From positions 124,001 through 188,000 of the forward strand of contig QPGO01000027.1 in assembly GCA_008632985.1 (NCBI GenBank): 64,000 nt of DNA, read 5' to 3'. Each line of letters starts with the position of its first letter. Position 1 is the stretch's first letter. The notes under the pieces were generated by a model that searched no databases, was not told the origin of the DNA, and saw only the letters and a program-made list of their open reading frames with translations. Below, piece after piece: positions 5,688-40,720 of the stretch. This DNA is from Psammoneis japonica. Lineage: Eukaryota. Both the position numbers and the translations under genes were made by a program.

Positions 5688-5704
5688 GATTAACAGTCTT
5701 GCTC
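5688..5704 (+). promoter_or_regulatory. Candidate primer-binding site complementary to the anticodon arm of tRNA-Asn(GUU)
   Basis: GATTAACAGTCTTGCTC directly follows the LTR; reverse complement contains GACTGTTAATC; no TGG-type 3'-CCA PBS. Confidence 0.55.
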
Positions 5705-14629: not shown

Positions 14630-15390
14630 AATCTGTGGCTTGAGGCTTGAGGTCAACACCAGAAAATCCTCTTTCTGCTGTCAAACCCAGCTTGAGCATC
14701 TTGGCCATGTGACACAGTGCTCCTCAAAAGCACTCTTCTGTTGTGAAGCAAGATTGACAGAGCCAACTGAGCAATTTGTCCAACCAGCAAACAAACAAAC
14801 AAACAAAGAGAGCTGCAATCATTTGTGGGCACACAACTGACTGTGGTCAAGATGTGCATTGACGCATTGCTTTGAGAATTTGTTGGCACCCCCTGCAAGA
14901 CTTGTGGGTGGGACTGTTGGTAAATGGGGTTGTGCACACCAGTTGCAAAAAGAGTTCTCAGTTCCATCACATGCACCACACCAGATGACACACCATTGTC
15001 AAGTCCAGACTTCAACTGGCCACTTTTGAGATTCACACCAATGCCTCCAAAAATGTCAACTCAGATCAGCAGCACAGCAAAAGAACAAGCCTGTTGCTGC
15101 TTTCTGCAGTGGCAGAAAGCTCAACAGTGCTCAGCTGGGCTGCACAGTGGCAAAGAGGAGAGAACAAGTTGCCGTCACAGATCCCAAAGGAAATTAAAAA
15201 ATTGCATTGTCATTGGATGATTGTGTGCACTGATCACAAAAACCTCCAGCAATGCTGTGTTTCTAGGACAGAAAAAACATTTCATTGGAGACTGGCATGT
15301 GAAAGAAAGAGTGCAGCCCCAAACTGTGCTGTGTCAAGCACAGTGACAAGCTGGTGGCTGACACCTTGAGTTGCCCAAATCTTGAGGCAC
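14630..15390 (+). mobile_element. Relic of Ty3/Gypsy-type pol (RT end and RNase H)
   Basis: LEVNTRKSSFCCQTQLEHLGHV (cf. LKVN..KS.F...LEYLGY), PDFN..FEIHTNASK across a frameshift, IVCTDHKNL, VADTLS. Confidence 0.75.
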
Positions 15391-16289
15391 AGATGGACTC
15401 CAAGTGCAATCTTGCTGTCTTGGGTCCACCCAACAGAAGAAGTGATGCACAATTTCCATGTGAAGTCTTGACACATGATCATGGAAGCCAAAAAACATCA
15501 TCCCTGCAATGTTGCTGCTGCTTCCAGTTAATGCTCAGATGCACTGGTGCGCACTTCAAATGGCTTGGTCTTGAAATCTAGATGTGTCAGCAAAACTTCT
15601 TTTGTCACCTTGACACCACGCACTTGAAAATGTCAAGAGTGCTTTGTCTTTGACATGTGTTGACCCCATTTGGGAGCCCCACCTGTGAGTTTTGTGTGTG
15701 AGGGGCATCAAAATGTCCAAACAGCAGCATGGCCACATGTCTTTTCTTTGTTCTTTGGCTTGACAATCTGCTCAATTGCTTTGAATTTTTTGGTTGACAG
15801 CTGAGTGCCTTTTCTTGTGACGTGTTCTTTGGCTCAGCTGCAGTCAGCTCAGTTGCTTTGACCTTTTTGGTTGATGGCCATGAGTGCCTTCTCTTGGGAC
15901 ATTGCACCCAAGCCACTTCAAACAAGTTTGGCAAGATGCTGTCTTGCTGGCATTCACATCAATTCTGGCATCTCATTGGAGTTTTTCAAGGACCCCATCC
16001 AGTTTCTCAAGATGGTCTCCAAAGGATCCCTTTGTTGTCATCAGCAAATTGTCTGTGTGCACACATGCAAAAAAGGCACTTTTTTCTGAAATGTTTCTCC
16101 ACAGAAAAATTGAAGTGCAAAGCTCAAGGGATGATCATGCTGCATTGAGTCAAACACATCAGTGACCCAGTGCTTTTTGCTGCAGAAAGCATGCATCACA
16201 CAAGATGTTTGCTGGTGTTCATCACAGTTGTCAGCATGCAACATTTGTTGCAGCACTCACATGGATGAAGTGACTCCAGAGGGGAGATC

Positions 16290-16920
16290 ACTGTGTGCTG
16301 GCTTTGGAGCACTTTGAAAGGAGCTTGATTGAGGTGGCTCTCAGACGTGCAAACTTGATGTTGCTCTGCTGGCCAGGTTCCAACTTAAATGGTTGTTCAA
16401 CCTCAACCAATTGCGAACAAGCAACAAATTGGAGCATGGAAAGCACTGGAAGCACTTCACCAGAAAGGATGAGCCCAAGCCATTGGGGTGTCAAATTTCT
16501 CTGTCCAACATTTGCAGCAGAGCCAAAGGAAGATGGAGCACCAATCATGCCAGCAGTTGACCAGATCCAGGCAAGCATGACCCTGCAGCATGCTGACATT
16601 GTTGAGTGTTGCAAGCAGAACAGTGTCATGCTTCAAGCCTGCAGTCCATTGTTCAGACATGGACTGTGCAAACTCCAAAAAGAAATCAAAACAATCATGG
16701 CCAAGTGCCAAAATGTTGCTCCAACATGCACTTGTTGAGTTCCACCACTTGGGGATTGTGCAAACTCCAAAAAGAAATCAAAACAATCATGGCCAACTGC
16801 CAAAAGGTTGCTCCATCATGCACTTGTCAAGTTCTGCCACTCGCATGGTCACGAACACAGAGGTCTTTAATTTTGAGCCATTGGGTGCCAAAATGGAGCT
16901 TCCAAACAAGATCAACAAGT
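16290..16920 (+). pseudogene. Aldo/keto reductase relic with a ~92-bp internal duplication (16661-16841)
   Basis: PAVDQIQ...IVECCKQNSVMLQACSPL (cf. VNQIE...EYCK..GI..QAYSPL) and NTEVFNFE; stops and frameshifts. Confidence 0.75.
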
Positions 16921-17161
16921 CAGATGGTGCTTGGGGTTTGCCAGCGCCTCAAAAGTTTTTCCCTGGCAAACCAGAGGGCAAGTTGAGTTTAGATGGATCA
17001 ACCAGAGAGCAAAACCCACCAAGGCTTCGGCATCTTGTTTCTCTGCATTCTGCAAATGGGCAGTTGCAGCTCTTGTGGTGGTTGCGTGATGCCAGCAGAT
17101 GACTGCAGATTGGGGACAGTTGCCATCCCTGAGGCCAGGAGCTGTGGTCAACAAGAACAAT

Positions 17162-18760
17162 CTAATGCTGCTGAGGCTCAATGTTCCACTTCTTGATCAC
17201 AGTGCCATCGCTGGCATGAGCAGAAAGCTCATCGCCAATGTTGGCAGTTAAAAGCAACTGCTCTTTGGGTGTGACCTTGGCAACAAGTGAGCCATTTAGT
17301 GAGACCGAAATGTCTTTGACATTGTTGTTCATAAACAGAAATTCCACAAAACCCGTTTTCAGCTCATCCCAAACAATCCCGGCAAAATCCTTTACATGCA
17401 AAACAGCATTCTTTGCCTGTGGAGCATGGTTGATGTCCGACTCATCCACCAGAGCAAAGCGCATGCCTGCACCCCAGTTTTCATTTCCAGTTTTCTCCAA
17501 CTTTCCGCCTGCATCAGAACATGTGGCATCAAAGTTGGAGTCCCTGAACCAAAAACAAGTGCATGGTCCGTAGATCAATGCTCTTGACACGGAGCTCTCG
17601 TTTGGCCCCCCGCAATGTGTGATCTGGCCGTCAAACACAACGGCATCCCCCATTTCAACAAGTGGTGCACACCAATGATCTGGAGGACAGGCACTCACCG
17701 TTGCTCAAAAAAACGTTTGCATTTCTTGAAAGGGGCTCCCTTCCTCAATTAGAGCCTCGTTGAGAGCAGGCACGTTCATTGGAACACCGCTCAAGTGCAA
17801 TGACCCCACGCAGAACTCCGTCGGACCATGGGCATGAGCAGCATTCTCAACAAGTGGTGTGAACACACTGGAGGCGAAGGGTGGCAAGTCATGTCCGCCA
17901 ATTCCTGATGCATCAAAGCTCTCACTCATCCAAATGTAGCTCATGTCATCGTGTCAATGCATTGTTGGAGCACCACTCTCCAAAATCTCCGAACCCACCT
18001 GGCTCAAGATGACATCCGGTCCCAGCACCTTCTCATGACTCATTGTGTTGAGGACATTTTCGTTTTGGAACATTTCATGGCCACCCAGCCACCGGGGAAG
18101 AATGACATCATGGCACTTCTTGCCTTGATCTTGCACAATGTCGTGCACTCTAGAGTCTGCAGTCTTTGCATCCGCCCCACTGATCTGACCTGCATGGATG
18201 GCGTAGAGACAGTTGTCGTGTTTGGTGTGACACTCCTCTGCAATTTCTTTGGGGATGATGTTTCGCAAAACCAGCAAACGGCACTTGTTGAACATGAGAG
18301 CTGCTTCTTCAGGATCAAAGTCTTCAGCAGAGACATCCAATTCCCATTCCATGCAGTCGCAGTCATCCACAACACTTTCCAATTGACGGGCATGGCAATC
18401 CGTGCAGGCAGCAAACATCTCTTCCGCTGTCGGGCCGTCGCATTGTGACATGACCTCATTCTCTTGTTGTCCCATTGCCTCAAGCGTCAACTTCATGAGC
18501 TTGGCCAGGGAGTCGTCAGCTTTGTCATTGCCTTTGACCTCTGACAGTGGAATCATGGCATTCTTGAGCACATCAACCTTGTCAACCTGCATGCTCAAGA
18601 GGGCGGATTTTGCCAACTCTGACACAGCATCAATGCTCGATGTTGGTTGCTCAGCTTCTTGTTGGATCCCGGGCTCATCCTCGGAAGCGGAGATTCCACA
18701 GGCAAGCACCACAAGCACCAAACCTCGGAAAAGATGATTCATCACTGAGGAAAGCAACAA
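17162..18760 (-). pseudogene. Phytanoyl-CoA dioxygenase (PhyH)-like 2OG/Fe(II) oxygenase with signal peptide, disrupted
   Basis: Three collinear ORFs split by stops; SGAPTMH*HDD, GPTEFCVGS, GDAVVFDGQITHCGGPNES..RALIY. Confidence 0.7.
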
Positions 18761-20498
18761 TGAAACAATTGTGTTGTGCCATGCTCAATTAATGCGTCAA
18801 GCATCTCTGCACCAGGAGTTCACCAAAATTGTGTCTGATTTTTTCAAAAAAATTTGAGTCTTGCAGCCAAATCTGCAGCACTGCATGGATGGTTGAGCTC
18901 TCTCAAAATGACAGCAATGATGACCAATGGATGTTTTGGGGGTTGGCGCACGCAACTGTGCTGCCTGCGCTGTGTAAAAACTCAGGGATCTATCCCTCAC
19001 TGATTGGTCGCTTCAAATGAATGCACACTGAAGATCTTCCATCAAGTTGTTGCTGCTCAAGCACTGGGGGCACAGCTGGAGCAGAGAGGATGGGCAGGAT
19101 GATGAGAGCTCCAAGCAACAAGCACCACAAGCCTTGTTTTCCAAAGATCTGTGCCCTCAGAGTGAGGGCAAAGCTCATTTCAAGAAAGCACAACACTTTG
19201 GTGTGAGTGCATGGGCTCATGTGCCAAGCCTGTTGGTGTGCTGGGAGCACTTGAAGATTTGGCAACTTGACTCACTGCACCAAAAAGTGTGACAGCACCC
19301 CTTTGTGCCCCTCTGTGTCTGGGTTCAGAAAAGTGACACATGCCGTGCTTTCACAGCTGGCCCTCCCAGGCCTGTGGCAGACTGGCGCATGTGTGGCCAT
19401 GCCAGTGTTGAGCATGGCAGCAGCAGCATGAGATGCTTTTTCACCTCTCATTGTCTGCAGTCAATGATGCACATTATCTTGGAGGGTCTAAAGTGCTGTG
19501 TGGCTGGTGCCTTCTTGGCCAGCCTCTTTGCCCCACACATCCAGCTGTGCTGAGAGCTCAAAACGGCTCTGCTGTGGGAGCAAACAGCAAGGCAGTCACA
19601 GGCAGAGCTGGAGCAGTGCAACCCTCACCAAGCAAAAGCAAGAAGCTGACTCCAAAAGGAGTTCAAGGTGCTTGATGCAAGGTTTCCATGATCTTGACAG
19701 AGAACAGCTCAACACATGGCCAGAAGCAGGCGCCATGCTGATGCACCAGGCATTGCCCAAAGAGTTGACAGCTGTGCAGAAATGCTTGCTTTTGGCAAAG
19801 AAAAAACTGCAAATGCCACAACTTTTTCTCTGCTGCTGCTGCTGCTTGCTTTCTGGCCATGATGTTGCTTTGCAATTGAGGTGCTGTGCCCTGCTGAGAA
19901 AGGGTTGTGGGGGAGAACAGAGGGGGGCGGGCAATGCAGTGAAAAACAGCTGTGCAAAAGGCTTTGAAATGCCACAGCATGGAGAAGGGCGCCCCCAATC
20001 TGCTCAAATGGAGGAAAATGGAGGATCCAAAGCTGGGCACTCACAAGTGCTCACTTGATTGCAAAACTTTTGAGAACAAAAACTCTTGGCACGGAGCTGG
20101 CCAACTCCTGTCTGAGCATGAGGAGGAGCACTCCTCCGCCAACCTCTTGCAACAGATGTGATCTTAAAAAACAGCAGCCAAGCGAACCAATCTTTTGATT
20201 GTTGATGCCCTGCCGTTCTTGCCACAAGCCAGCCAAGAGAGAGAGAGGAGAGGAGAGAGAGAGCGTTCTCCACCAGTCGCACCCGGTGCTTACAACATGT
20301 GCAACAGCCACACTCACTGTTGTGAATGAAGTGCCGCCGGGGGGGGGGAGCACAGCCAGACTGGTTGGAAAAATAATGTGCGTGCGTGTTTTCTATTTTC
20401 GTTTTTTTTCCCCGTGAATTTGAAATTGCGATGATGGTGAACTGACGGTGAACATTGACCCCAGTCCCTCCTCTCTTTCTTCGTGTGACTCCGTCATA

Positions 20499-21440
20499 AT
20501 GACAAGCCTTGCGTCGGTAAGCGACGATGCGAATAGGATTGTCGACAAGTACTTGGACGCTGTCGGTCTTTCACGGGAGCAACCGACACACAGTTTTTTG
20601 TGTCTCCTCCTTCACCGGCATATGGAAAGGTTTCCCATGTCGAGTGTCCTTCCTTGTCTAGGGGCATCACCGGAGTCTATGGGTTTAGACACCCAGTCTC
20701 TATACAATACAATTGTTCGAGATCGACGAGGCGGTTACTGTTTCCAGCAAAACAAACTTCTGTATGATGTTCTTGTAAACTTGAATTACCAAGTGAGGCT
20801 AGTATTGGCTCGTGTTACAAACAACAAAGAGAACTTTCGACCAGGATTGACTCATCGAATCTCCTTGGTTAACTTGCCAGAAGGAACCTTTGTAGTAGAT
20901 GTAGCGTTTGGTGAAAAATGTCCTCCTGGTCCTGTTCCTCTTGACGGAAAAGAGTTGATTGTGAGTTTGCCTCGCAGGTACCGTGTCTTTAATGCCAATA
21001 AGAATGCTGCCAGAAACTCAGAGTTGGACCCCGATCCCTTGCATATGCAAGTCAATGATCCAGAGGGAGGAAAAGAATGGTACACCACGTACAAGTTTGA
21101 TCTTGGTATCAACTACTCGGAGGAGGATTGCAAAGTCAGTCACTTCTTCTCGTCACAATCCCCGGACGCTGTTTTCGTAAATACGCTGTTTGTTTCCAAG
21201 CGACGGTCAAGCGATTGCTCTGTACAGGAGCTAGCCTTTTTGAAATATAGGTGCATTGGTCAACATGATGGAAGTGAACTGGACTGCCGAATTGTCGAGA
21301 GTGCAGAAGAATTGCGTCAGCTGTTGTTGGATACATTTGAGGTGCATGTCACGGAGGACGAGAGCGCACGTCTCTTTGCAAAGAACAAAGCAAAGATGGA
21401 AGAACGAAATAGGAAGGCAGATACTGACGAATCAGTATAG
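20499..21440 (+). CDS. Arylamine N-acetyltransferase family protein, intronless
   Basis: RRGGYCFQQN, TH and VVDVAFG give the Cys-His-Asp triad; normal composition. Confidence 0.92.
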   Translation: MTSLASVSDDANRIVDKYLDAVGLSREQPTHSFLCLLLHRHMERFPMSSVLPCLGASPESMGLDTQSLYNTIVRDRRGGYCFQQNKLLYDVLVNLNYQVRLVLARVTNNKENFRPGLTHRISLVNLPEGTFVVDVAFGEKCPPGPVPLDGKELIVSLPRRYRVFNANKNAARNSELDPDPLHMQVNDPEGGKEWYTTYKFDLGINYSEEDCKVSHFFSSQSPDAVFVNTLFVSKRRSSDCSVQELAFLKYRCIGQHDGSELDCRIVESAEELRQLLLDTFEVHVTEDESARLFAKNKAKMEERNRKADTDESV

Positions 21441-21582: not shown

Positions 21583-24500
21583 CTAATTGGCAGTTTCATC
21601 AAGGGCATCACGCGGGCGTTTGCGGCTTTCCATTGGTGGACTCTTTGGCACATCTCGCTTCTGCTTTGACAAAAGCTGGTAACACAAGTTCAGTCTCATT
21701 TCATCCGCTGTCGGGAGTGGTTTCGGCCAAAACAAGTCAAATGGATTTCCAATATCAAGTTCTGAGGGCTTTTGCATTACGGAGCCTGAATTTAAAATCA
21801 CAATCGCGTCTTTTTTCTTTGCGTGCTCTCTGTAGAAGCGAAACGACTGGTCAGCGACCAGATAATCTACAAAGCTATATTTCGTCACTCGCATCTTGGT
21901 TCCACGTACCTCACAAACCTCCCCACATCAACTCCGTCTATACCTTCACCTAGTTGGTGGTCTACAATCACGAGATCAAAGCTGCGTGATTTCAGTAATT
22001 CCTCAGCTTCCTCTCCCGTAGTTGTAGCTGTAATGTTCCATCTCTGTATCACAAAGTCAGGCAGTCTTAGATTCGAGAAAAACACGAGATGCAACATGTG
22101 GTGGCGCAGTATCGCTCGCTTACCTTTTCTGCGACAGACATATCGGTAAAGTGCGGAGACGATACTTTCCGGAGCTTGCGGCCCATGAAGTGATTGTTCA
22201 TTTTTAGGTCATCGACAGTCAGGACGCTCCAACCACTGGGAGGGCAAAGATGATCCAGCAGCTTTTCCAAGATGGTCCGATCAGAAGGGATTGGTTTTTG
22301 CATAAAGCCCTCTGCGCCAGCTGACAAGTGATTCATCTCTTTCTCGTTACCCGAGATACCGATAATCATGGCATCCACCTTGTTCTCTCGGAGTTTCTGA
22401 ATTGTCTCAGCTCCGTTCAAGTCTCCAATCCCCATGAAATGATCCATAGTAATTATATCGTAAGCTTCCTCCCGCTCACACGCTTTTTCGATAGCTTCTT
22501 CTCCACTTTCGGCTTCCTCGACAATAGCGTCAGGAAAGAGGCGTTGGAATCTTCGCCGAATGAACTTTCGACACACTTTGTCATCGTCCACAATTAATAT
22601 ATGATATTTTCCCTTGACGTGAGAGAACGTTTCAACAACACTCTCTTTCTTGGTGGAGCTTTTTTGTTTCTTGTTGCTGATGCCATCATCTGAAACTATG
22701 CTATTTCTGCGGATCTTCTCGCTGTTTGTTCTTGCAGCGACGACCGCTCTGGATAACGATTCAAACGTTGTGATTGGGCAGGATTCTTCGTCATTTAGTA
22801 ACGAGTTGATTGGAAGTTCCACGATAAATTCAGCGCCCTATGATTGGAAAAGTAGCGAGAAATAAGCAATCCTCGGACTCAATATTCATTCAGAATTGCG
22901 GCTCATAGAATGACTCACCGGATGTCCTTTAATGCCAGAATCGTATTCACGGTTTAGAGAAATCTTGCCTCCCATAACTCGTACAAAAGCTTGACAGAGA
23001 CAAAGGCCTATCCCCGTGCCATTAGTGGTGGAACCCAGCTGAAAGAAAGAGCAATATGTTAGCATTCAGTCTGGCAGAAACCAAGAAAAGACAAACAATT
23101 TCTTCGTACCTGCTCCCACTTTGAGAAAAGCGAGTCATAATTTGCAGGAGATATTCCGCAACCAGAATCGGCAACGCTCAAAATCATGGTATCCCCCAAT
23201 TTTCCTTCTGTACTGCTTGTTTGGCTCAACGTCACTCGTACAAATCCTTTGGACGTGAACTTGAGACTGTTGCTGACCAGATTGGTCACAACTTGTCGCA
23301 ATCGCAAACTGTCCACGTAAGCAACGAGTCCCTCACCACCACACAATTCCACTTGTACTCGCTTGTTGCGTACATTCATCATGTCACGCGTCGGAATCAA
23401 AATTTCATCACGAACGTTGCAGGATTTTGGGTGGAGTGCAATTTTCCCTTCAATGCACTTGTTTAAATCCAGCATGTCTGTCGGGAACGACGAGAATGAA
23501 ACAAACATTAGCAATCCATGTAACAAAAGATGGGGGTAAACACTGCAACCAAGTTCTCACCTGTCAGTAACTCAACAATATACCGCAATGACTCGGATAT
23601 AAGGTCAATATGCGATGCGGATTCCGGAAGTTTGTAAAATGCGTCGTCCTTGAGGGCAGCAGCTGCCTCGGTGGCAATCGACAGTGGGTTCCGAACCTCA
23701 TGGCTCAGCCATTCTGTAAGTCCCTTTTCAGCATCCACCAACTTGAGAGCCGCTTCCTTCTTCTTCTCTTCCTCTTTAAATTTAGTAATGTCCTGTCCAG
23801 CAAAGGCAATACCTTTAAAGGCGCCGTTACTGTCGTACCGTGCCTTGTTCTTCACGTAAAGGTATACAGCTTTGCCAGAGTCCTTGGTAAAAACTACAAT
23901 CTCGTCCGCTTCTTTTGAAAAGGACGATTCTCCCGCCCGAATACTGCTTCCCAGTAGCAAAGTGATGCGGTTGCGTTCGTCTTCCGGCATAAAGTTGCTA
24001 AAAGACTGCCCAATTGCTTCTTGCTGCGAGAACCCCGTCAGCTTGGTCATGACACGGTTCCACTTGTAAACGATTCCAGCACGATCAATGGCAAAAATAG
24101 GAGACATGCTTTCGTCCATGAGCTCTCTGATTTCGGTCCGTGCGCTTTCATTGTGAGCTTCATGTTCTGTAATATCACTCAGAACGCCCGTCCACTTTGT
24201 AAGAGACTCGACCGTCCCGTTGGCATTTACTTCTTCCACAAGACGAGGCTTGGATTTGCCGTGCACAAACTTGACGTTTTGGTCCTTGTCGAGAATTCGA
24301 AACTGAAAGTCCCAAACAGTCATGTTGGTCATGCTATCCACGACGGATTTTGTGAATTTCTGCTGATCATCGGGGTGCAGCGCATTCACCAGCATCTCGG
24401 GGTGAGCCATTAGGTGCTTTGCAGAAAAGCCATATATTTCCTCGCAGTACTCTGATACATAGGGGAAATTAGAAGTACCGTCGGCGTGGTTAATCGTGAA

Positions 24501-24647
24501 GGTGTACACCATGGCGGGTATCATATTGATGTCGAGATCCGGAAAGGGAGGGGGGGAGTTTCCCTTTATGTTTTCAAGCGCTTTGTCCACATCGACCGGA
24601 GGAGGAGGATCTGCTGTCGTGTCGTTACGAGGAGCGTCGGGGGACAT
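21583..24647 (-). CDS. Hybrid sensor histidine kinase: 2 PAS, HisKA, HATPase, 2 receiver domains; multi-exon
   Basis: YVSEYCEEIYG and WNRVMTKLTG (PAS), SHEVRNPL, NLVSNSLKFT, DSGCGI, ILIVDDD..DIITMD and VLTVDD..DLVIVD; GT-AG introns between ORFs. Confidence 0.93.
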
Positions 24648-24966
24648 TGTGTTGAACGATATCAGTAAATGCAACGGAGATGAGAGAAAAAGTAACAAAC
24701 CACGCACAACGCCATGGAGGGTGAAGCGCTGGGCGACGCTGCGACGCTATGAAGATCGGGTGACCTACCGACGGCAAGAAACTGGCAATTGAATATGAAA
24801 TCAAAAGACGACTTATATATCTATATATATATATATCCATGAATGAAATATCCACCGCGCCGGCCGCCACAAAATTCCAAAAAAAACAGCGCCAGTTTTT
24901 GTTTTTGGAGTTTGATCATGACGATTGACGAAAAGATGCGCCGCTGTCATAGTAGCGCAAATGGCA

Positions 24967-27282
24967 TCAGGACGTCGGTTGCAAAGGCTTCGGTATCACA
25001 TGAACGGCAAGTGTTGCCGAGTGCGCGGTACCTGCAGAATCGCTTACATCTAGTTGAAGCATGTAAGTTCCCGCCAATGAAAAAGACACTGAAGTTTCAA
25101 GTGACTTATCATCCTCAAACAAAGCATCGCCAGGACCAGAAACTAATGTCCAAGTAAAAGATGGAGAACGCCCCAGCAACGTAAGGTCTCGGACAATTCC
25201 ACCAATGTCCATACTCTGATTCTCTTTCAGAGGAATGCGGTCTTTGTCCAAAAAAGTCACCAATGGATCTAAGAACAGACCTTCCCCAAACCAAGAATCC
25301 AGTTGCGACCAAATATAGCCAGCCTCTTGCGCTGGGAGCATGACATGACGAAGGCTATTTTGTCCCAAACGATCCTTGAGTTGCGCATAATACAGTGATC
25401 GCGGTGAAACGTGCGCATCCACGGACCTCCAAATCCCTTGCTTTGTTTGTACCGTATGATTGCCAATGTTTCCAACGGCGTAGTTCATTGCATTGTTCGG
25501 TGCATCACAGACAATGTTTCCCTCACAATTATAAAGCATAACTTGTGCACCAGCCCATCCGTGTCCGGAGCCGAGTGAACCGCGGTTCCTCACGGCAATT
25601 CTCCCCCCAGACCCATCCTCTCGAACGGAACGAATGCTATCAAACAGTTGTCCTGTGGAGTACCTGTGATGTGGACCAATCTCGCCAGCAGCGGTATCAA
25701 TAGCCAAATTGTCCACAAAAGCATTCGGTCCCGGTGTGTATGCTCCACAAGCAAAATCACGACGTCCGCTTTGAGCAAAACAACGTTGAAACAAGATGAA
25801 GCTAGAGTTGACAACGGTGAACGAGACACGGCGACCACCTTTCACCAAGCTCCTGAACTCAAGCATGGCGGAATCTTCCACGGTGATGAAGCTGCAATAT
25901 CGCTCGATGGAAACCAAGGAATAGCCAAAGTATTTGCCGGTGACCTGACGCACCCAGGCATTGCGAACCCTCATCATCTGAATGGCTTTCCAACCGTGAT
26001 TTTCGTCTTTAGGGTCTGATGAACTATACGACGATTCCAATCTGAGGTTTTCGATACCAACATTTTCAGTTTGATCATCAAGAGTGTATTCGTAGACAGC
26101 CGCACCACCGTACAGGATCGAGTCGATTGGTTGGACGATTGATGCGTCGACCGTGATCTGGTTGTCCATAACGGCGGTGACAGTGCGGCGCCACATGATT
26201 TGATACTGGCTCGGGATCCATCCATACTGTCCCATGTCGCCCATGTCATCTAGCCAAGCTTGATTAGGTGTGAGTTGCACAATAATCTCTGCCCCGACAA
26301 AGAATCCGTGTCCCGGTGTTACATTGAAGCTTTTTGCACCTGAAGGAACAAAGGCATCGTCAACTCGCATTCTCGGCCCAACACGTTTTGGATTGCCGTC
26401 GCCCGTTATAAAAATCATGTTGGACTGTTTTGAGTTTGTGTAGGTAATCTTGGTCCCACCCGCGCCAGATCCTTCACCACGAAGCACGACGCCACTTGTT
26501 GAAATTGTCAATTGTCTGGATACACTGTAGTTTCCCGCTTTCAAAAGAACGGCGCCGCGAAAGCCGTCAACTAGAGGAAGTGAAGAGACAGTTGAAATCG
26601 CATCTTGGATCGCGTCTGTGTCATCGCTAGACGTGGCATTAATCTATAGCAAGATGGTTTGAAAAAGACAGCAAAAAAAACTCTAGCATAAGTCCCCGCT
26701 CGATTGAAACGCATTCACTTGTTGGAAGTAGCAACGATCAACCAGAGACGCAACATTAGGAGGACTGCGGGCACTTACTGTCACCGCCGCTTGTACAAAA
26801 GGAATCGGCACACCTTATCATTCAACGGTTGAAAAACCATGTCAGTGTCGGAATACTCAAGCCAAAACAATCAATTCTGCGCTACGGTGTTCATCAAAAG
26901 TATCTTACCTCCGCCTATTGAAACAAACAGAAACGAGAGAAAGAGAACATTGAGAAATGAGTGCCACGATGGAGGCAAAGGTTTTGGGTATGCAATGCCT
27001 AATGCCGACATGAATAGTCAGAAAGATGTCGTGGTTACCTTTGTACCCCGCATTTGAATAGTCTGGAACTCTATTGGTAAATCCTCCATTGATTTTGTTG
27101 TCGTTGGGGCCATTCTGGTTTTCGTAAGCATCATAATGGAGAGCCGAGCCGCCCCGAATCAACGACACCAGCTGCTGCGACCTTTCGTCCAATTCCAAAG
27201 AACGGCGACCGGAAGCAGTGTCTGAATTTGCCAGCACCAAGCAACAGCATGACAGGAAGAAACCAGCAATTGCCGCCGTCAT
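24967..27282 (-). CDS. Secreted pectate-lyase-like beta-helix protein with C-terminal PKD/Ig-like domain; exons 27282-27039, 26914-26909, 26813-26779, 26643-24967
   Basis: Signal peptide; spliced PDYSNAGYKGGGVPIP, DDTDAIQDAI, GAVLLKAG, GVVLRGEG, GPHHRYSTG, GHGWAGA; WTLVSGPG...AGTYMLQLDVSD. Confidence 0.8.
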
Positions 27283-27468
27283 CTTGTCACCAGGGAGCGT
27301 TATTGTTGCCGCGGTGTACCGGTGTCGCTCTGCTGGCTTTCCTTTTCATAAAATATTATGTAACTCGGGCAAAGAAGAATGTGAGGACAGTGTGAGGAGG
27401 GCCTTTTTCCGTTGCGGCCGATTTCGGCGGAAAACGAAATACACCAACATTTAGATATACATACAAAA

Positions 27469-27579
27469 AGTTGAACAGAGATTTTCTGTTAAAAACAATC
27501 ATGTAAGTATTATTATATATTAACATAAAATATATACATTGTTAATCGCTGGCCGCCACCAAATTTTCAAAATCTAAAA
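27469..27579 (+). repeat. ~110-bp direct repeat, TA/CG-intact copy
   Basis: AGTTGAACAGAGATTTT...GCTGGCCGCCACCAAATTTTCAAAATCTAAAA shared with 32069-32172. Confidence 0.85.
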
Positions 27580-27669
27580 CTTGAAACTGTGGCGCGACGA
27601 CTCACCCGCCAAGAGTGGACATGCCATACATCACATTATATACATGCGAGGCCTCCAAAGCCAAGTCAA

Positions 27670-30600
27670 GTGCCACTTATGTATCCTCGCAGACTCCGGA
27701 AGTCATGTTGCAACAAGAAGTGTCGTTGCAGCAAATGACGCAACAAGTGCACGTGAGATCCGGCGGGGCGAGACAGCCCGCCAGAATTTCGCCGACTGGA
27801 GCACCTTCACGCTCGCAAAAGTCGTTCAAATCTCCAGAGAGGCCCGTCATTGCAAGCCACAAGAAGTCTTAACACGAGAACACGGAGTGACAGGTGAGAA
27901 TGGGCAATGACGAGAATGAGTCGGGATCACGAAGCAGTGAGTCCTGCACTCACCCAGTGAAGGAATGAGAGCCAAGCTGTCAGGGACTGCACCAGTCAGA
28001 GGGTTGTCATGCAAGCAGAGTTCTGCGTTTGAACAAAAGGATTCCCGTTGTGAGTTGATGGACGTCCAATCTACCAATCCACAACAAGGAACTTCAGGAT
28101 AAAAGCACTTACGATGTAAGCTGGAACATTTTCCAAGGTCCCGGGGTGTGGTTCCTGACAGGCGATTTGAAAACAAGCCAAGTTTTCTCAGCTCAGAATG
28201 TTTCCAATGGACGACGGCATTGTACCGGTCAGCTGGTTCCCCGCAAGTTCTACCCACTGTAGTGCTGCGGATGGCGTTGTTGAAAAGAAACTCTCCAGAT
28301 TTCCTGAGAGACGATTGGCGATTGCGTAAAACCCAAATGACGTGCCTCGGTTTGCGGAAAAGTCTGGAATGGTTGAATTGAGACAACAATTGAACCCAAC
28401 ATCAAGTCCTTTTAACAAAGGAAGATCTGCAATGGCCTGTGGGATGCTTCCACTGAAACTGTTGTGCGACATGTCAAGTTCCGCAAGCTGGACAAAATTG
28501 CCAATTTCTGTGGGCAGTGTTCCATGAAAATCATTCTTCTCCATGTGCAAGCATTTGAGATTATTCAGAAGACCAATCTCGGTTGGCAGGCTTCCAGAAA
28601 ACTTGTTGTCGCTGATGTTCAGCATCGTGAGATCAATCAACAGACCTAACTCAGATGGAATCGAGCCTGTTGTTTCGTTTCCGAACAACGTCAAATGCTG
28701 GATCTGCGTGAATCGTCCAATTACTTCGGGTGCAGAACCAGAAAGACTGTTTGCAGCTAGTCTCAGCAGCTGAAGAGAGGGCGGAGCAGAACCGAAAAAG
28801 CTCTCAAGATGTCCCGAAAGCTCATTTCCGTGGAGCCACAAGTGAATAAATGATCTTGGTTTCCCAGAAAGTTGGGCAAAGAACCGGTCAAGGAATTGTC
28901 ATTAAGGTGCAGAACCCGAAGGAAAGGCAGATTCGCCAGCGCTTGAGGGATTGTCCCTTGTAGATGATTCTGGCGCAGAGACATCATCGTCACATTTGAC
29001 AGCTTTCCAAATTCGGTCGGAACATCTCCTGCAAGACGATTGCCGCTCAAAAACATCTCCTCGAGCCTCGCACTCCCGATTTCGCTAGGTGTCGTCCCCG
29101 TGAAATCGTTGAATCGAGCGTCGAGCCATCTGAGCTCGGTCAATTTACCAATGTCACTTGGTGTTGCCGAATTCACAATGTTTGAATGAAGATCAAGACA
29201 TTGCAAATTCGTGAAGTCGCCGACATGACTAGGGAGACTGCCTGCAAGGGCATTGTCGAACAACGTCAGAGTGGTTAGAGAATGCGGCGTGGCTTTGAAG
29301 AAATCAATCAAGTTTCCTGATGGCCCACATTTCCGTCAGCCTTGAAAACTTGCAGGCGTTCGAGGTTTGAATCAAAGATTGGCAGAGATCCCGTGAACTT
29401 GTTGTTGGAAACCTCCAACCGAACCAAGGCAGCCGGAGCAAAAGCTGGGGGCGCATCAAGTCGGCCAAAAAGTTGGTTGTCTGCCAAATGCACGGTCTGG
29501 AGATTTGGGGACGTGAAAAGCGGTGGCAATGCATTGGTCAATGTGTTTCCGGTTAAGCCCAATTCTTCAAGGTTCACTGTTTCAAAAAGCTCAGAAGGCA
29601 GTTTCCCGTTCAATCGACAGTCCATGCAACCGAAGGACCGGAGTCTTGAAAGGTTCCCAATGTTGGCAGAGATGGTTCCACCAATGTTGTTTCTGCCCAG
29701 CCACAGCAGCTCGAGGCTTGGCAGTGAGAATGTGGAATCTGGGACAGTCCCCTCCAGGTAGTTCGAACAAGCATCGAAGAGTGACAAGTGGGACAGGGCG
29801 CCAATGGAGGATGTGATTGAGCCTTCGAGAGAATTGCAGCTCACGTTTGTCATTTCAAGCATGGACAAGTGACCGATCTCGTCCGGAAGCAATCCCGTCA
29901 AATTGTTTGAACCTGCAAAGAGGACAACCGTGATGTGGAAAGGCTTGCCAGGCATTCGTCATTTTGCAGCTCCAAGTGACAGAGCCCTTGCACATTGCAT
30001 TACTTGCCAAGTGCAACCTTCGATGCGAAGCCTTGGCTGTCACAAAAGATGCCAGAATCTGTGCCGTCATTCCACTGGCACATGCTGGACTCGGACAGGA
30101 AAGAGAACTGATCACGCCAATTATCTCCGACGGAAATAAAGTGCAACAACGCAAAAATGTGATGCTGTTGGATCCCTGTTTCCGGATCATTGTCGGGGTC
30201 GACAAGTGCAGAGTCATTGTGTGCTAACCACGTGGCAGCTTCGCACTGAGGGGATGAAGAATCCAGAAGAAGATCCGCTCCTGAAATGGGTGACAGCACA
30301 CGGACGAATTTGTCAGGGACAGCAGGCTCCGGAACTGGCCCATCGTCCTTCTGAAGACTAAAGACGACAATCAACACGACCCCGACAATGACCAGAATAA
30401 ATGAGGCAAGAATCATCATGAATTTTCTGTTCTTGAATGAACAGAACTTCTCTGGCGGGACAATGTCTGCCACCAGAGTGTCTTTCAACATGTTCTTTTT
30501 TGTCTCTTCGACAACATCACTCTCACTCCGAACCACTTTGCTGGCATTAACAATCACCGTTTCTGGTGAATCATCATCATCTTCAGAACTTGGTGTGGTT

Positions 30601-31187
30601 GCATTGTCCACAATGACGGGGTCTCCAGCTTTGGCATCAACGTCAGTGTTGCCGGACCCTTGAACAAAATGGGCCCCTGGCTCTGAAGTGTGTTCGTTGA
30701 CAGCACGCACCGCTGTGGTTTCAACGGCAGTTGATGGGTTCGTAGATGGTGCATCTCTTGGCAGTGCAGACTTGGGGACCGCTTGTTCCCTTCGCTCTTT
30801 GGTTCTTCTGTGACAATCCTTGACCTGTTCATCAATTGTCGGTGGAAGAAGCTTCTCGTTCAAGCCGCGACTTGTCTTCTTTTTCATCTTGTGCCGTCTT
30901 TCGTCGCATGTTGATGTCAAAAGTGTCATCGCCCCTGACCTTCTCATTCCTCTAGCTGTCTCTGTTGCATCAGATTTCTTTTCCGGGAATGTTTCTTCTT
31001 CTTGGGGTGCGCATTTCGTTTCAGGAAACTCTTCCGCAAAGTTGTGCCCTCTGAATGCCGTGGCACCCACTTCGTTCGACTTGACTGAAGCCATGCCATG
31101 TGAAGTCTCTGGCGTGCTGTGCCATTTTGGCATGGGTGGGGGCTGCAGTGGTTTAAGGTCCTCCCTGTGCGGTGACTGTTTCTTCAT
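27670..31187 (-). pseudogene. TM-anchored LRR receptor-like protein, frameshifted and TpA-depleted
   Basis: Low-complexity N-terminus, TM helix, LRR cap (C.W..GIFC), many L..N.L.G.IP repeats; frameshifts near 29310, 28845 and 28200; His/Cys at Tyr positions. Confidence 0.85.
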
Positions 31188-31552
31188 CCTCGTAGCAGCA
31201 ATCTTGTTCGCACACGTTGCTGAGATCGCAGGAAAACGCAGCACAGCCACAACAAGCTTTCGACTTTTGCCTGAGAAGAATGCAAATTTTCTTGTGCGAG
31301 GGTTTTTACCTGCCTCTCTCTCTCTTTCTCTCTCTCTTTCTCTGTTGATGAAAGAAATGGGATGAGCGATCCTGTTGTAAAAAAGATTGGGTTCGGATTC
31401 ATGAATGAACTTGCTTCACTTCCGCTGTCACTTCTGCATTTTTTTGGAAGCAGGTTCTGACCAACTCGACTCAAGCAATGCGGGAGTGACCTGGATGCCT
31501 TTAACCACCTGTGGCACTCCAGGCCAATCGTCAGGTCAATCGCCCTCTGTCA

Positions 31553-31558
31553 CTCTCT

Positions 31559-31597
<39 letters not shown>

Positions 31598-31623
31598 TTT
31601 CTCTCTCTCTCTCTCTCTCTCTC
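31553..31623. repeat. (CT)n microsatellite (others at 31313-31342 and 39879-39909)
   Basis: Directly visible. Confidence 0.95.
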
Positions 31624-32068
31624 TGCCAGTGTCTGACGTGCTCTCTTCCAGGATTTGACAAACAACTGATCGAGGCAAAACTCATCAAAGTCACCCTCCA
31701 GCAAAAAACCAAAACGGAGCAGCTTCAGGCACCTGATCACATGCTGGATTGTTTTGGGGCGGCAGTCAAAGGGATTTTTGGTGCTGTGATCCATGTCAAA
31801 GAACGTGTCCTTCCTGCAAGGAAAAGCACTTGGTGGGAGCGGTTTTTGTCCTTTTCTTCTTGGGTGCGGGGGCTGCCTCCTGAGCGGCGTTTTGTTTCTC
31901 ATGGGCAGCCACCTGATTGGAACTTTGCTGCTTGTCAGCATTGCATCCATGGGCAGTGGCTGGTCCATGAAATCTTTTGCTTCCACTGGCTGTCGCCCCA
32001 TTGGATGGTGAGCTCTCTTGTCTTTTCCTGTGTTGCACACCAACGAACAAACAACATTGAGCTGGGGC

Positions 32069-32172
32069 AGTTGAACAGAGATTTTGTGCAAAAGTGCATC
32101 AATGAAAGTGTGTTGATGTGAAATGTGTTCATTGTCAATTGCTGGCCACCACCAAATTTTCAAAATCTAAAA
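32069..32172 (+). repeat. ~110-bp direct repeat, converted copy
   Basis: Aligns to 27469-27579 with TA->TG/CA and CG->TG/CA substitutions. Confidence 0.85.
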
Positions 32173-32399
32173 TTGAAGAAATCAAACAAGTGTGCCACCT
32201 GTGGCATGATTTGCCTGAAATGCTTGTGGAAAAGCACAGCATTCCTGAATCATTTTCACGTGCTTTTAGATCTTCTGGCAGAAGCAAGTCATCACGCAGC
32301 TTTTTTCACAAAAAGTTGTCTCGCTTGCAAACAGTCCATGTTGTGCAAGGAGCAAAGATCGTTCACCATGACTGTTCTTCTTGGTGAGTGCTTTGTTGC

Positions 32400-33174
32400 A
32401 TGGAAGGTGCTGCAATGTTTGGTGTCCTTGACGGTGATGCGCCACACAAAGCTCGACCTTGTTCCAGAGCTGAGTGATGGACATGCCAGTGGCTGTGTCA
32501 ATCTGATCATTGTCAATGTGAAGAAGGTAAAAATGAGCAAGGCCAATGCCAAACTGAAGCTTGGAAACTTCATTGGGGGGGCCGTCCATCCCAAGATTGA
32601 AAAGACCATTTCCAAGGCGATTGTCAAGGCTTTTCTGTCTTTCCTTCAAATGGGCACAAAATCTTTCCCCTTGCAGGATTTCATTGTTGATGTGGACTTG
32701 GGTGGAGAAATGGGCGCTGAACGCTGTGCAAAGAACATCAAGTGTGACCACAAAGGCATCCAATTTCAAGCGCACAGCAACTGGATCCCTGATGTTGAAG
32801 TCTGGTGGTCAGACAATTGGATCGTTCCAAGTCGTTTCAAGTTTGAGAGTCATGGGACAAAAAGGAACACCTCTGAATCCCCGCAGGTTGGGGAGTGTTT
32901 CATCTCTTGGCACAATGTGAACAAGTCACTGGAAGGATGTCTCAACAGCATCAACAGAAACGGTGACCACACTGTCGAAGATCTCAAGTTCTTCCACCCC
33001 GAGGACGATGGTGGTTCAAGCAACACAAAGATCAAGGTGTTTGCCATGATCGACTCACAAAAGCTTCATTTGGCGGTGCAACTGGATGATGGACACATGA
33101 CTGGAAAAGATTGGCGCAGACCGCGCGGCGCGCCATCTTTTCGTCGCCTTTTTCGAGGACAACAGACAACATAG
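32400..33174 (+). pseudogene. Protein-like ORF relic of unknown family
   Basis: Part of the 349-aa ORF 32125-33174 with globular-looking composition but no Tyr, in TpA-depleted DNA. Confidence 0.35.
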
Positions 33175-33230
33175 CGTTGAGCGTTGTTGATGGTTGACGC
33201 ATGTCTTTCGCTATCTGCGCTCGTTGAACC

Positions 33231-36200
33231 ATGGACGCTTCTTCCGCAGAGACGCCTTCGTCTCCTAAGCGTCCTCGTATGGCCAGTGCAAGCGAAACGA
33301 CTCCTCTTCAACGCCCTCCTGTAAGGAATCCGTACTCGTCATCAAAGCCCAAAACTGCTGCTGTAGCTTCAAAGCAACATACCGTTGATTCCGACGTTGA
33401 AATGCTCTCTCCTCCACCGAAAATAAGCAATGTTGCTACAGCCAGTACCAACGTTGATGACGACGAAGTCATTGTGGAGTCGAGTAACGTCACCAATCCC
33501 ATCGTGGTTTATCCGCACGCTCGTCATGACTGCGGTGTGCATAAGTATGAGGACGGTTCCAAGGAGAAATATTGTAAGAATTGTTTTTGCATCAAGTGCA
33601 ACAAACCAGCCAGTCTATGCAGTCAGTGGAAAGAGCATTGTCAGTTTGTACCGAAAAAGAGCGCTCCTAAAGACCTTGAAGATGACAGTGACGACAATGA
33701 CGAGAACGTTGTTGTTCCTTACGCCGAATTCCAACGGTTGCAGAGCCATACTGGTATGCATCACCAAAGTATTATGCATGCTGTGCGTCAAAATCTTTCC
33801 GTGATGCAACAGCATTATCCCAACAGAAGAAGGACAGGAGGAGAAACATATACTCGTTCCAATCAACAAATGCGTATTACCGAAGTTTTATCTCAGAAAT
33901 TGGCTGAGCTCGTTCAACCTTCGCAGAATAAGGAGATGGAGGGCGACATCGCACAACTAAATCTCCACAAAGCCTTCTTTATGCAGAGTGTCCGTGTTGG
34001 ATGGCCCGTAAGTGAACAGGAATGCATGCATGCGTGCCGTCTAGTTTTGTTCTTTTGAACATCTCTCACATCATGTCCTATTCCTTTTATCTAGTTTCCC
34101 ATGATTATGAAACCCCAACGTGAGATGGCTTTCCACTTGATCCGAGCTTTGAAAAATTCACACCACGTCGTGCTGGAAAGCCCCACCGGCACAGGGAAAA
34201 GTGTAGCGATCCTTTGTGCCGTCTTGGCTTGGCAGCGTTATCACGCCAAGACCCACCCCAACGACGAAAAGCAGCCAAGAATTATTTATTGCAGTCGGAC
34301 ACACTCGCAAGTGGCTCAAATGGTGGCGTCTCTCAAGAAAACACCATACCGTCCTCGCATGGCTGTACTGGGGAGTCGAGATCGTCTCTGTATTCACAAG
34401 TCACTTGTTCCTCGCGACGGCAGCGATCCACCTACGAATAAGATCAATGTCAATCGAGAATGCCAAGTGCGGGTATCCAATACGGAAAAAATCCGCCGAA
34501 GGCTTGCCAAATCAGAAGACTTTTTTTATGAGGACGATAATCCTCCGGTAGATTTACCAAGTGACGGTTGCGGCACCAGCAATGTCGACCAGAGCTCTCA
34601 AGACGATGACGACGGTGGCAATAACCCAAACAGTTCGGGTTGGATCATGTCGCACAACAAAAAGAAGCCCACCTGCCCACACTATCGACAGCTTTCTACT
34701 CAGCGCCACGCCAGCATGGCCAATGAGCGATTCCTCAAGTCGCAGTGCTGTAGCGTTGGAGGAGAAGAAACAAAAGCGGGAGTTCACGACATTGAAGACT
34801 TGGTAAGCTTTGGAATGAACCCACACAAGGAAAAGGGTGTAGCATTGTACCGAGAGACGGGTTATGGCTCTTTCAAAATGGCCATTGCGAGCGACGAGAA
34901 GAATGGCGGCTGCGTGGTGGACGCGGTACACAAGGGTGGTGCGGGTGAAAAAGCAAGTCGCGTCAAGCCAAAGGATCGTATTCTCTCCGTCAACGGTAGG
35001 GATGCGCGAGATATGCGGCTGGACCAAGTAACGAGTGCAATCGTGAATACGACGAAAGATCCCCTCTTGCTGGATTTGCTTCATGCATCGGGTGACAATG
35101 AAGAAGAAGACGAAGACTACTCGTCGCATGCGGCGTGTCCGTACTACTTGTCGAGGGCGCTGAGCAAACACGCCCAGCTCATTTTTGCTCCGTATAATTA
35201 CATTCTGGACCCGTCAATTCGTTCCTTCCTCGAAATTGATTTGGAAGGAGCGGTGGTTGTTCTGGATGAGGCACACAACGTCGAAGACACACTGAAAGAG
35301 AGTGGCTCTGGAAAGTTTGGAGAAGTGGAGCTCTGTGAGATCGTTTCCTTGCTTGCGCACTATTCAAGTGCGCAAAAGCATGCCTTTAATCAAGTTGAGG
35401 TGGAGGGTGAAGAAAAAGAAAAGGATCTGTCTGAAGTAGCGCATGCACTGCTCTTATTTTTCGAAAAACTCGTACTGTATATGACCAAGCACAAGAAGTC
35501 TTTTGAGGCAAGCCCCGGTCGAAATGGGGCTGTTGCCGCCATTGCCGAGTACCGAAAGTTTCACACACCCGACGACCACGAGTTTGAGATGAAGTACAAT
35601 GGCCCGACAGGTCACGGTGTCATGAACAAGGCAGTCGGCTGCAAACCTTTTTTTGACGAATTGCAGATATCTCAAGATGATATGAATCAGTTGGTGGCAT
35701 ATGCCGCCGCAATGGACAGTCACGTTGGAGGACGCCAAGAAAATGAAAACTCCGAAAACGATAGGGGTGGTACAAAAACCATTATGGATAGAATGAGTGA
35801 ATTGGTTTCGAAGTTCTTTCACGCCACCCAAGCCCCAGAGTGAGTTAATCCCGAACGTCGTTGCATAGCAGGGTTTGAATGAACTCATCTTTTGATTGGT
35901 TGTTAAAGGCATTTCTATGTCTCGTGCGTTGCGCAGGCGAACGGTAATCTGGACTTTGCGTCAGGGGAGGATGAAGAAGGAGATTCGTCTCCAGCCAGAA
36001 ATGGAGGGAATCGATTCCAGAAGAAACCCAAGTCGTTACCCTATACCCACCCTCGAAGCGCTGTACAACCTCATATCCCTGTTCCTGTTTGTGTGCACCC
36101 GGGCTGTCGTAAGCATAACTATGCTTTGGGAGAAGGCGTGCGTCATGGAAATTTCTGTAATGGTTCCACTCCAAAGTGGGAGGCCCATCTTGTCCTGAAG

Positions 36201-39559: not shown

Positions 39560-39877
39560 TTGTGGTTGGTTCAATCAAATCAATCAACGCAATAAAAAAC
39601 CGCAATGTGATGGATGCCACGGTCTGTCTGCTGCTCGCTGTCGGGACTCAATCGCCGCGCAAGTCGATCGACACATTGGTGCCCTCTCTGCAACATTGCT
39701 CTCGACTCTGTCTTCTCTTGTGGCTGATGCACTCTCAGTTTGACTCTCTGGTAGAAGAAATGGAGTAATTTATGAGATCCCCAGACTTGTGAGCTCCAGC
39801 CAGAGAGCAGCAAAACACAGTGCGGGGTGTGTGCAGAGCACACAATCTCACTCAGCAGGCTCTTCCTTGCTGCTGCT

Positions 39878-39912
<35 letters not shown>

Positions 39913-40720
39913 CTGCACATCAAGAGAGTGTGCATGGCAATGTTGATGAAAGAAGAGAGTGGGTGCTGTTGCAGTTTGTTCTGACTCTTGCAGCATTGCA
40001 GCAGCTGCCACCAACAACTTCGCGCTCTTCAAAGAAAGCTGAAGCCAAGATGCCTTTGCCCAGCCATGCAGCGAGAATGATGTTGTTGGCGGGCTTCCAT
40101 GCTCTGGCAACTCTCCAGCAAAAAACAACTGCTGTTGGTGGTCTGTTGTTGCACATCTTGTGCATCTCAGGGGCCGTGCCACACATCAGCTCCTGTGCTG
40201 CGAGTGCGCAGGCTGCGCACATTGTGGCACGCTGGGGGCAAAGTCAGCCCAGCAGCAGACATTTCAGCTGTGTGGTGTTTGTGCCCATTCCAACTGATGG
40301 TGTGCAATAATGCAGAGAACAGCCTGAGAGTTTTCACACCATGGCTGTTCAACATTTGGAGGGGTGGCCACATCTCATGGCACAAGAACAAGGTGTTGCT
40401 GGCACCACCCTCTCTCTGCGGGAGCTGGGTGATCTCTTCCAAGCAAGTGGAGGAGCAAGGCCAGCCACCAAGAGCAATCCAAGTGCACAGCAGCTGCAGC
40501 ACTGTGGTGCATTGCCATTTTGTGTCTCATGGGAAGATGCAGAACCAAACCCTGGCGAGCAGGGCGCAGCAACTCACAAGCCAGGTCCTGCCTGCAACAG
40601 CTGTCTGTCTGTCTGTCAAGCATCTCGCACCTCACAAAGCTGTCCGTACGTCGCACGTCCGAAGCATTCAACGGTTGCTTCGCAAACATTTTGTCGTGAT
40701 CCATCTGGCAGCTGACGTCA
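39560..40720. other. Short TpA-depleted island between normal genes, probably a TE/repeat remnant
   Basis: Composition switch, (CT)n tract, nearly Tyr-free ORFs. Confidence 0.8.

Follow-up and report, generated by a model that had tools for sequence, protein, structure and literature searches.

A short direct repeat in the genome of Psammoneis japonica occurs in two states, one rich in TA steps and one nearly devoid of them, on either side of the left edge of a TA-poor domain. The repeat, here called R, was studied in a 64,000-nucleotide stretch of contig QPGO01000027.1 (positions 124,001 to 188,000 of the forward strand; hereafter the window, numbered from its first letter). Copy 1 lies outside the domain and copy 2 inside it, together with a leucine-rich repeat (LRR) receptor-like gene. 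The reading that we favor, with a probability of about 0.6, is that R is a private short duplication which passively records a domain-confined rewriting of TA to TG/CA and of CG to TG/CA by a place-directed mutator. The repeat itself, the substitution spectrum, the limits of the domain, the gradient across it, and the asymmetry between the copies are established.

Two copies of one repeat in different states

Gapped local alignment of 27469-27585 with 32069-32177 gave a score of 97, the maximum in 200 shuffles being 30. The copies are in the same orientation about 4.6 kb apart, form a unit of about 110-117 bp, and share an identical 24-mer core which occurs twice in the window (any match in 0 of 100 shuffles). 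The initial annotation had described this repeat in pristine and converted form; both strings that it quoted were located, at 27516 and 32109, and the alignment bears the pair out. Of the words sampled from the window, 89% are present in run X1, which was used in the form of contigs; these were placed at a likeness of at least 80%.

27469-27585 (+): R copy 1, unconverted; 14 TA and 2 CG; outside the TA-poor domain; identical in the X1 contig
32069-32177 (+): R copy 2, converted; 1 TA, 0 CG, 16 TG, and 10 CA; in a strongly converted core

In the well-aligned right part of R, TA in copy 1 corresponds to TG in copy 2 at six sites (27517, 27519, 27522, 27527, 27532, and 27534) and to CA at one (27543), while CG corresponds to TG at 27547 and to CA at 27555. 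The remaining differences are one CA/TG swap (27524-5), one transversion at 27536 which also removes a TA, and one 1-base indel. TA to TG/CA hence accounts for 7 of the 11 differing sites and CG to TG/CA for 2, exactly the tally that had been reported from the sequence before. Copy 1 retains 14 CA/TG steps, and the sole TA remaining in copy 2 has the context CTAA. Divergence is greater in the left 45 nt, where two indels occur, one of 8 bases within a TA-rich low-complexity run and one of a single base, along with several differences other than transitions.

A second, independent pair with the same one-sided pattern is provided by the long terminal repeats (LTRs) of a Ty1/copia element. The window is eukaryotic and contains long-exon genes besides this element.

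5405-5690 and 12236-12521: Ty1/copia LTRs, with RVT_2 in the 7916-12295 frame

LTR copies are identical at insertion. Here, all six internal differences are TA in the 5' LTR versus TG/CA in the 3' LTR, with no other internal difference, and the TA counts are 15 and 9, respectively. The 3' LTR adjoins a large TA-poor domain (12501-20350), and LTR divergence would misdate the insertion of this element. Conversions divide into 6 TG to 1 CA in R copy 2 and 1 TG to 5 CA in the 3' LTR, which is suggestive of strand-coordinated conversion runs, although the sites are few.

The TA-poor domain and the LRR gene within it

The limits of the domain were taken from TA counts per 100 bp, with a 2-state segmentation as the alternative. 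The domain and its surroundings comprise the following features.

26905-27282 (-): first exon of a PKD/pectate-lyase-like gene, with signal peptide; R copy 1 lies upstream
27700-33150: TA-poor domain, 5.4 kb, from counts per 100 bp
27847-31187 (-): LRR receptor-like gene with a disordered N-terminal region, a transmembrane helix, a cap region, and plant-type LRRs
31295-31645 (+): two (CT)n microsatellites separating the LRR open reading frame (ORF) from the core
31400-33150: core sub-block holding R copy 2, without recognisable coding content
33231-34058 (+): start of a DEAD_2 (XPD/RTEL-type) helicase gene; the domain stops about 80 bp before its ATG

By the 2-state segmentation the left edge falls at 28351, as a few TAs persist in 28100-28330. 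R copy 1 lies 115-770 bp outside the left edge, depending on the edge call, and copy 2 is about 1 kb away from the right edge, on its inner side; with 14 versus 1 TA, the earlier description of a pristine copy at the border of a converted block is upheld. The right edge is sharp and coincides with the CG-rich start of the helicase gene. A 41-nt island (27693-27733) is located exactly at the left edge and at the break between two X1 contigs. It matches another contig of runs X1 and X2 (6 differences listed in the X2 contig), and the sequence to either side of the match is unrelated.

TA makes up 0.171 of all TA, CG, TG, and CA steps in the normal neighborhood, 0.042 in the LRR gene, and 0.010 in the core; across the domain the TA share is 4-25% of that of the neighborhood and declines from left to right (Spearman rho -0.84, p 0.0003). 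Both TA (p 0.0008) and CG (p 4e-5) differ between the core and the LRR part. In the LRR part (27.7-31.3 kb) TA is reduced about 4-fold and CG is almost fully kept, while in the core (31.4-33.15 kb) TA is reduced about 17-fold and CG is halved. The two losses are separable, since the LRR part lost TA and kept nearly all of its CG.

This domain is one of six sharply bounded TA-poor domains, which cover about 38% of the window and have 10 internal edges. Observed/expected TA ranges from 0.04 to 0.14 among them, with TG and CA raised to nearly 2; CG is depleted (0.11-0.34) in the older-looking domains, not in all. At all five assessable edges the adjoining gene has its 5' end toward the domain and is transcribed in the outward direction, a pattern which hints at promoters as stops for the domains.

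20350: NAT (+)
27700: PKD (-)
33150: helicase (+)
39800: cytochrome b5 (-)
61900: GT2 (-)

Surviving TAs were counted in the blocks 551-5400, 12501-20350, 28351-33150, 39801-40700, and 61901-64000. They are mostly YTAR (n = 94: TTAA 31, CTAA 11, CTAG 9, TTAG 9), and their 5' neighbor is T in 56% compared with 21% in normal DNA (chi-square p 2e-31). The converted TAs had no enrichment of a 3' pyrimidine in a hand check of a small set (12/18 versus a baseline of 59%).

The LRR gene carries the marks of TA loss in its coding sequence. Tyr makes up 0.3% of the residues in its frames and 2.7-4.8% of those in five neighboring genes. In the window the gene is split into five ORF pieces by four frame breaks, and it had been annotated as dead on first inspection. 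An X1 contig of 3817 nt covers 27726-31539 with 12 substitutions and three 1-base insertions (after 28199, 28846, and 29999). When the changes of this contig were applied by script, the extra bases at 28199 and 28846 removed two of the four breaks; the assembly overstates the damage. The third extra base, at 29999, falls just after the GT that ends the first long LRR frame, probably within a GT-start intron. The assembly and the contig share one break, near 29310-29335. The verdict of a dead gene is accordingly kept in part, and because of this shared break together with the missing Tyr codons, the LRR gene is judged from its sequence to be probably a pseudogene.

No close paralogue of the LRR gene was found. 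Its LRR domain gave 5415 generic matches, the best 120 of the 5415 being at 25-41% identity, and among the matches listed none exceeded 41%. Residues 325-471 of the N-terminal region had no match in the database search. X1 covers the gene with one long contig at a depth of 65.7, compared with 58.4 in the flank, plus short blips only.

A different picture is seen in the core. Two to seven overlapping X1 contigs lie on 31.6-33.3 kb at a likeness of at least 80%, reaching seven at 31675-31830, which suggests related copies or alleles of the core elsewhere. One X1 contig (depth 69) skips 40 nt at 32215-32256. A frame of 350 aa (32122-33174) has no relatives in the protein collection or in viral contigs, and a Pfam search with six frames, four in the core and the others elsewhere within or next to the domain, gave nothing at E < 0.01.

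The 3817-nt contig is as TA-poor as the window over the entire LRR gene, with five fewer TA. Because the same TA-poor sequence is recovered in it over 27726-31539, the depletion does not stem from a single assembler. All 12 substitutions lie in TA, TG, CA, or CG steps: five are window TA versus contig CA/TG, five are window TG/CA versus contig CG, and two form one TG/CA swap at 29226-7. In 11 of the 12 cases, T/A in the window corresponds to C/G in the contig. No difference was found in three X1 contig pieces wholly or partly outside the domain (about 1290 bp outside). The sole X1 contig reported in R copy 2 has C/G at 32111, 32128, and 32131, where the window and copy 1 have T/A. Either the lineage of the contig kept gaining A>G/T>C changes, or the assembly contains C>T-type errors at modified cytosines.

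A technical origin of the TA/CG versus TG/CA differences was also considered, in which some or all of them would be errors in the consensus of the assembly, made where bases are modified within a methylated domain. Such an origin would fit the restriction of the 12 differences to these four steps, accompanied by three missing bases, and their absence from the three contig pieces wholly or partly outside the domain. However, the X1 contig is itself TA-poor, and errors of this kind would account for about 0.3% of positions but neither for the domain nor for the R pair; the swap at 29226-7 is also hard to obtain from a single miscall. We regard a technical artefact as very unlikely.

Identity of R and direction of change

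The initial annotation had offered three readings of R, as the end of a transposable element (TE), a duplication junction, or a boundary element. Homology of the flanks beyond R was assessed with a scoring that forgives TA/CG to TG/CA, using controls from other TA-poor blocks, and none was found (left 19 versus a null maximum of 27, right 22.5 versus 36.5). Flanks at control level indicate that R is a discrete unit of about 110-117 bp and not the tip of a longer duplication. A junction is therefore the part of the proposal that survives to a degree: R itself is duplicated, while nothing shows that the 4.6-kb interval is.

The first of the three readings finds no support. Besides the lack of flank homology, terminal inverted repeats and target-site duplications, for which a search had been recommended, were not found at either copy, nor were LTR ends. 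The single-strand fold is ordinary (z -1.1 and -0.4) with only an 8-nt inverted word, and neither Rfam (E up to 1, 24500-33500) nor a tRNA scan gave a match near R. No further copy exists in the window, even with purine/pyrimidine-only seeds. No additional X1 contig falls on either copy at a likeness of at least 80%, nor does any record fit two places of the window, and the exact 24-mer core has 0 matches in metagenome contigs and 0 in viral contigs. R begins (A)GTTGAAC and ends TTGAA; by eye there are no TG..CA termini or shared flank words, and the sole feature resembling a primer site is TGGCGCG 7 nt after copy 1. An LTR pair of a terminal-repeat retrotransposon in miniature or large retrotransposon derivative was rejected for want of TG..CA termini and common flank words, and a miniature inverted-repeat transposable element or other small DNA transposon in view of the ordinary fold, the 8-nt inverted word, and the presence of two copies in the window. 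The boundary element fared no better, as R-like sequence lies near 1 of the 10 internal domain edges in the window, which also speaks against a dedicated insulator.

A weaker form of the TE reading takes R as a fragment of a TE or dispersed repeat, with copy 2 forming part of the repeated core and copy 1 standing on its own as a truncated insertion or solo fragment. The overlapping X1 contigs over the core, one with the 40-nt skip, and the position of copy 2 in the most converted sub-block are compatible with this. Against it, a single X1 contig is present at the reported places in copy 2 (32111-32131), copy 1 is covered with 0 differences, the structural hallmarks listed above are missing, the core has no coding or family match, and the 64 kb hold no other R copy. 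A fragment of this kind appears improbable to us.

R could alternatively be a promoter-proximal module, with copy 1 spared in an active promoter that blocks the domain and copy 2 being the silenced promoter of the LRR gene. This reading draws on a third R-like site. The initial annotation had pointed to a similar motif near 24862, which is indeed there.

24858-24882 (+): short R-like motif, 22/26 identical, adjoining a TA-rich run; of borderline significance
22067-24746 (-): hybrid histidine kinase (PAS, HisKA, HATPase_c, receiver) in three frames; normal TA and CG

The motif scores 29, above the maximum of 23 in 306 control segments, although it is short and 0.61 chance occurrences of its 16-mer pattern are expected in a window. 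The three R-like sites share one orientation, and they are found upstream of three minus-strand genes that follow one another (PAS kinase, PKD, and LRR). Each site combines a GGCCGCCAC(C)AAA(W)TT box and a TA-rich, TATA-like run, and GGCCGCCAC itself occurs solely at the two unconverted sites (expected 0.30; 2 reached in 3 of 100 shuffles). Copy 1 is 187-303 nt upstream of the signal-peptide ATG at 27282 of the minus-strand PKD/pectate-lyase-like gene, the third motif is about 150 nt upstream of the PAS-kinase ATG (near 24716, read by eye), and the 5/5 assessable edges face gene 5' ends. The LRR frame, however, has its first ATG (31187) at a distance of 880-990 nt from copy 2, and ungapped similarity over about 70 nt is a sign of duplication rather than of a common motif. 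Moreover, the third site spans 26 nt, was picked post hoc, and recurs at no other gene start in the window. A promoter module is a possible but unlikely identity of R, less improbable than a TE fragment.

The pair can also be read in the reverse direction, as C to T changes at CpA in copy 1, similar to those of repeat-induced point mutation (RIP), with copy 2 near-original save for CpG decay. The seven TA versus TG/CA differences are compatible with both directions, and the TA content of copy 1 is unusually high (13 TA in 27500-27599). With the X1 contig taken as the starting state, 11 of the 12 changes that lead to the window are C to T or G to A at CpA/CpG. Several findings oppose this polarity. 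Copy 1 retains its 14 CA/TG steps while copy 2 retains 1 TA, and the flanks of copy 1 have ordinary TA content. The TA-less state of the domain, at 4-25% of its neighborhood, is the unusual one and needs a cause of its own, and Tyr codons are missing in the LRR gene. In addition, RIP mutates both copies, according to the parts of PMC2621366 considered here. We hold a reversed direction to be most improbable, on a par with a technical artefact.

Instead, we infer that TA changed to TG/CA. Copy 2 is saturated, with 1 TA, while copy 1 still holds many CA/TG steps. A working ancestor of the LRR gene must have had TAY codons, which in view of 0.3% Tyr today supports TA loss, and the CA/TG swap at 27524-5 is most simply explained by an ancestral TA that changed once in each copy. 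The same change, TA to TG/CA, has been measured in mutation-accumulation lines of Bigelowiella natans, as described in the parts of the preprint considered here (10.64898/2026.01.13.699255).

Under the favored reading, R would straddle the left edge of the 5.4-kb domain by chance. Within the domain, TA steps and, more slowly, CG steps would be rewritten to TG or CA, so copy 2 would have lost 13 of 14 TA and 2 of 2 CG by sharing the fate of its surroundings, and copy 1, about 115 bp outside and upstream of the next gene, which looks intact, would have been spared. R would record the conversion and not cause it. The mutator would be directed to a place, a chromatin-like domain, and would not depend on the pairing of repeats, which would explain how two copies of one repeat can be in different states. 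Targeting looks positional and not driven by homology, because the LRR gene is affected without a close paralogue and because one partner was spared in both the R and the LTR pair. The heavily converted core (31.4-33.15 kb) would have a weaker extension over the LRR gene that fades toward the outer left part, with conversion stopping on both sides at the 5' ends of neighboring genes. Such a layout could have arisen by spreading from the core, with active promoters as the stops. The chemistry would be of the deamination type, A to hypoxanthine at TpA on either strand and decay of 5-methylcytosine at CpG. The weakest part of the explanation is the origin of R, for which we favor a private short duplication, either a short copy templated in the course of DNA repair or the remnant of a local duplication. 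A fuller account, in which a still-active, chromatin-domain-directed TpA erasure in a diatom-like alga starts in a repeated core, kills the adjacent single-copy LRR gene, and halts at active flanking promoters, is tentative and clearly less probable than the reading of R itself.

Several observations weigh against the favored reading. Polarity at R itself is inferred without an outgroup copy, and the indels and non-transition differences in the left 45 nt are not explained by conversion. The CG loss requires a second process, and some of the CG deficit could likewise stem from assembly or base-calling error at modified cytosines. Judged by the X1 contigs, the core that surrounds copy 2 does appear to be multi-copy, and the contig search is blind to converted R copies below 80% likeness, so that a low-copy TE family is possible. 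X1 may be the sample from which the window was assembled, and the lopsided differences between the two do not fit two symmetrically diverging lineages. Finally, the rule of gene orientation is based on five edges (p about 0.03), which makes it a hint.

Elsewhere in the window, the arylamine N-acetyltransferase gene (20424-21440, +) has normal TA and CG, like the hybrid histidine kinase. A frame with a TRM5/TYW2 methyltransferase domain (62789-63337, -; E 2e-6) lies in a block with observed/expected TA of 0.04 and CG of 0.15, and is a further host-type gene fragment in converted DNA. A 150-bp tandem duplicate (412-561 / 565-714) has 4 differences, all transitions, of which two are TA versus CA/TG. 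A complex array of tandem units of about 190 bp (4300-5400) adjoins the 5' LTR of the copia element.

Significance and comparison with known systems

R is ordinary in itself; its value is that of a natural before-and-after pair. Together, the R pair and the LTR pair indicate a TA-erasing process that is targeted by position and not by repeat pairing. Positional targeting separates this process from RIP and points to a mutator guided by chromatin or transcription. The locus also displays a host gene degraded beside a repeated core, with TA loss ahead of CG loss. Because TA is lost in such domains, standard divergence dating of duplicates and LTRs is unreliable there. Should biology underlie the assembly/read differences, the process would be fast enough to follow in culture, and a 6-kb amplicon (27.3-33.3 kb) would serve as an assay. 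New at this locus are the positional targeting without homology, the graded invasion of a single-copy host gene, and the confinement of assembly/read differences to four interconverted steps.

Repair of double-strand breaks can make short templated insertions or local duplications. R is similar, since its single additional copy of about 100 bp has the same orientation, lies a few kb off, and lacks the hallmarks of a transposon. No junction microhomology could be shown at R, and repair would be the default reading of its origin.

Silent chromatin spreads from repeats into neighboring genes and is stopped by active promoters. The graded conversion and the edges at the 5' ends of flanking genes are reminiscent of this; unlike an expression state, the read-out here is a permanent base change.

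CpG decay is the deamination of 5-methylcytosine in methylated repeats, and it would fit CG to TG/CA at 2 of 2 sites in R and to the halved CG share in the core. It does not explain the TA loss, nor an LRR part which lost TA and kept nearly all CG.

RIP in ascomycete fungi, in the sections of PMC2621366 and PMC7296669 considered, shares with the present process damage by transitions only, a dinucleotide preference, mobile or redundant DNA as a target, and the killing of genes. The differences are greater. RIP makes TA from CA/TG, whereas here TA disappears (PMC2621366, PMC7296669), and RIP mutates both copies, whereas here one R copy and one LTR changed and their partners were spared (PMC2621366). 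A gene without a close paralogue is affected here as well. RIP, acting as C>T at CpA and leaving TA-rich repeats, was rejected as an explanation, as the affected copy and the domain are TA-poor (R, 14 versus 1 TA; LTR, 15 versus 9).

The closest counterpart is found in B. natans, where TpA-restricted hypermutation of integrated giant-virus and virophage DNA is reported in the parts of the preprint considered (Mettrop et al., bioRxiv 10.64898/2026.01.13.699255); an ADAT2-like adenine deaminase is a hypothesis there, not a result. A literature search found no published account of TA-erasing hypermutation in diatoms. As far as those parts of the preprint go, several differences stand out. The targets here are a retrotransposon neighborhood, a repeated core, and a single-copy host LRR gene instead of viral DNA, and no viral relatives were found, the domain consisting of a host-type LRR gene and the core. 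CG is also lost here in older blocks, the organism has long exons and few introns, and compared with the mutation-accumulation lines, the rate is hinted at solely by the 12 differences between assembly and X1. TA changes to TG/CA on either strand in B. natans and, with the polarity favored here, would do so in P. japonica as well, and the clusters of B. natans are TA-poor and rich in CA and TG, as are the six domains of the window (observed/expected TA 0.04-0.14, TG and CA up to about 2). In B. natans the process is, by the same account, far faster than background mutation, and a reading as genome defense is plausible. By analogy, the TA part of the process in P. japonica resembles the hypermutation of B. 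natans.

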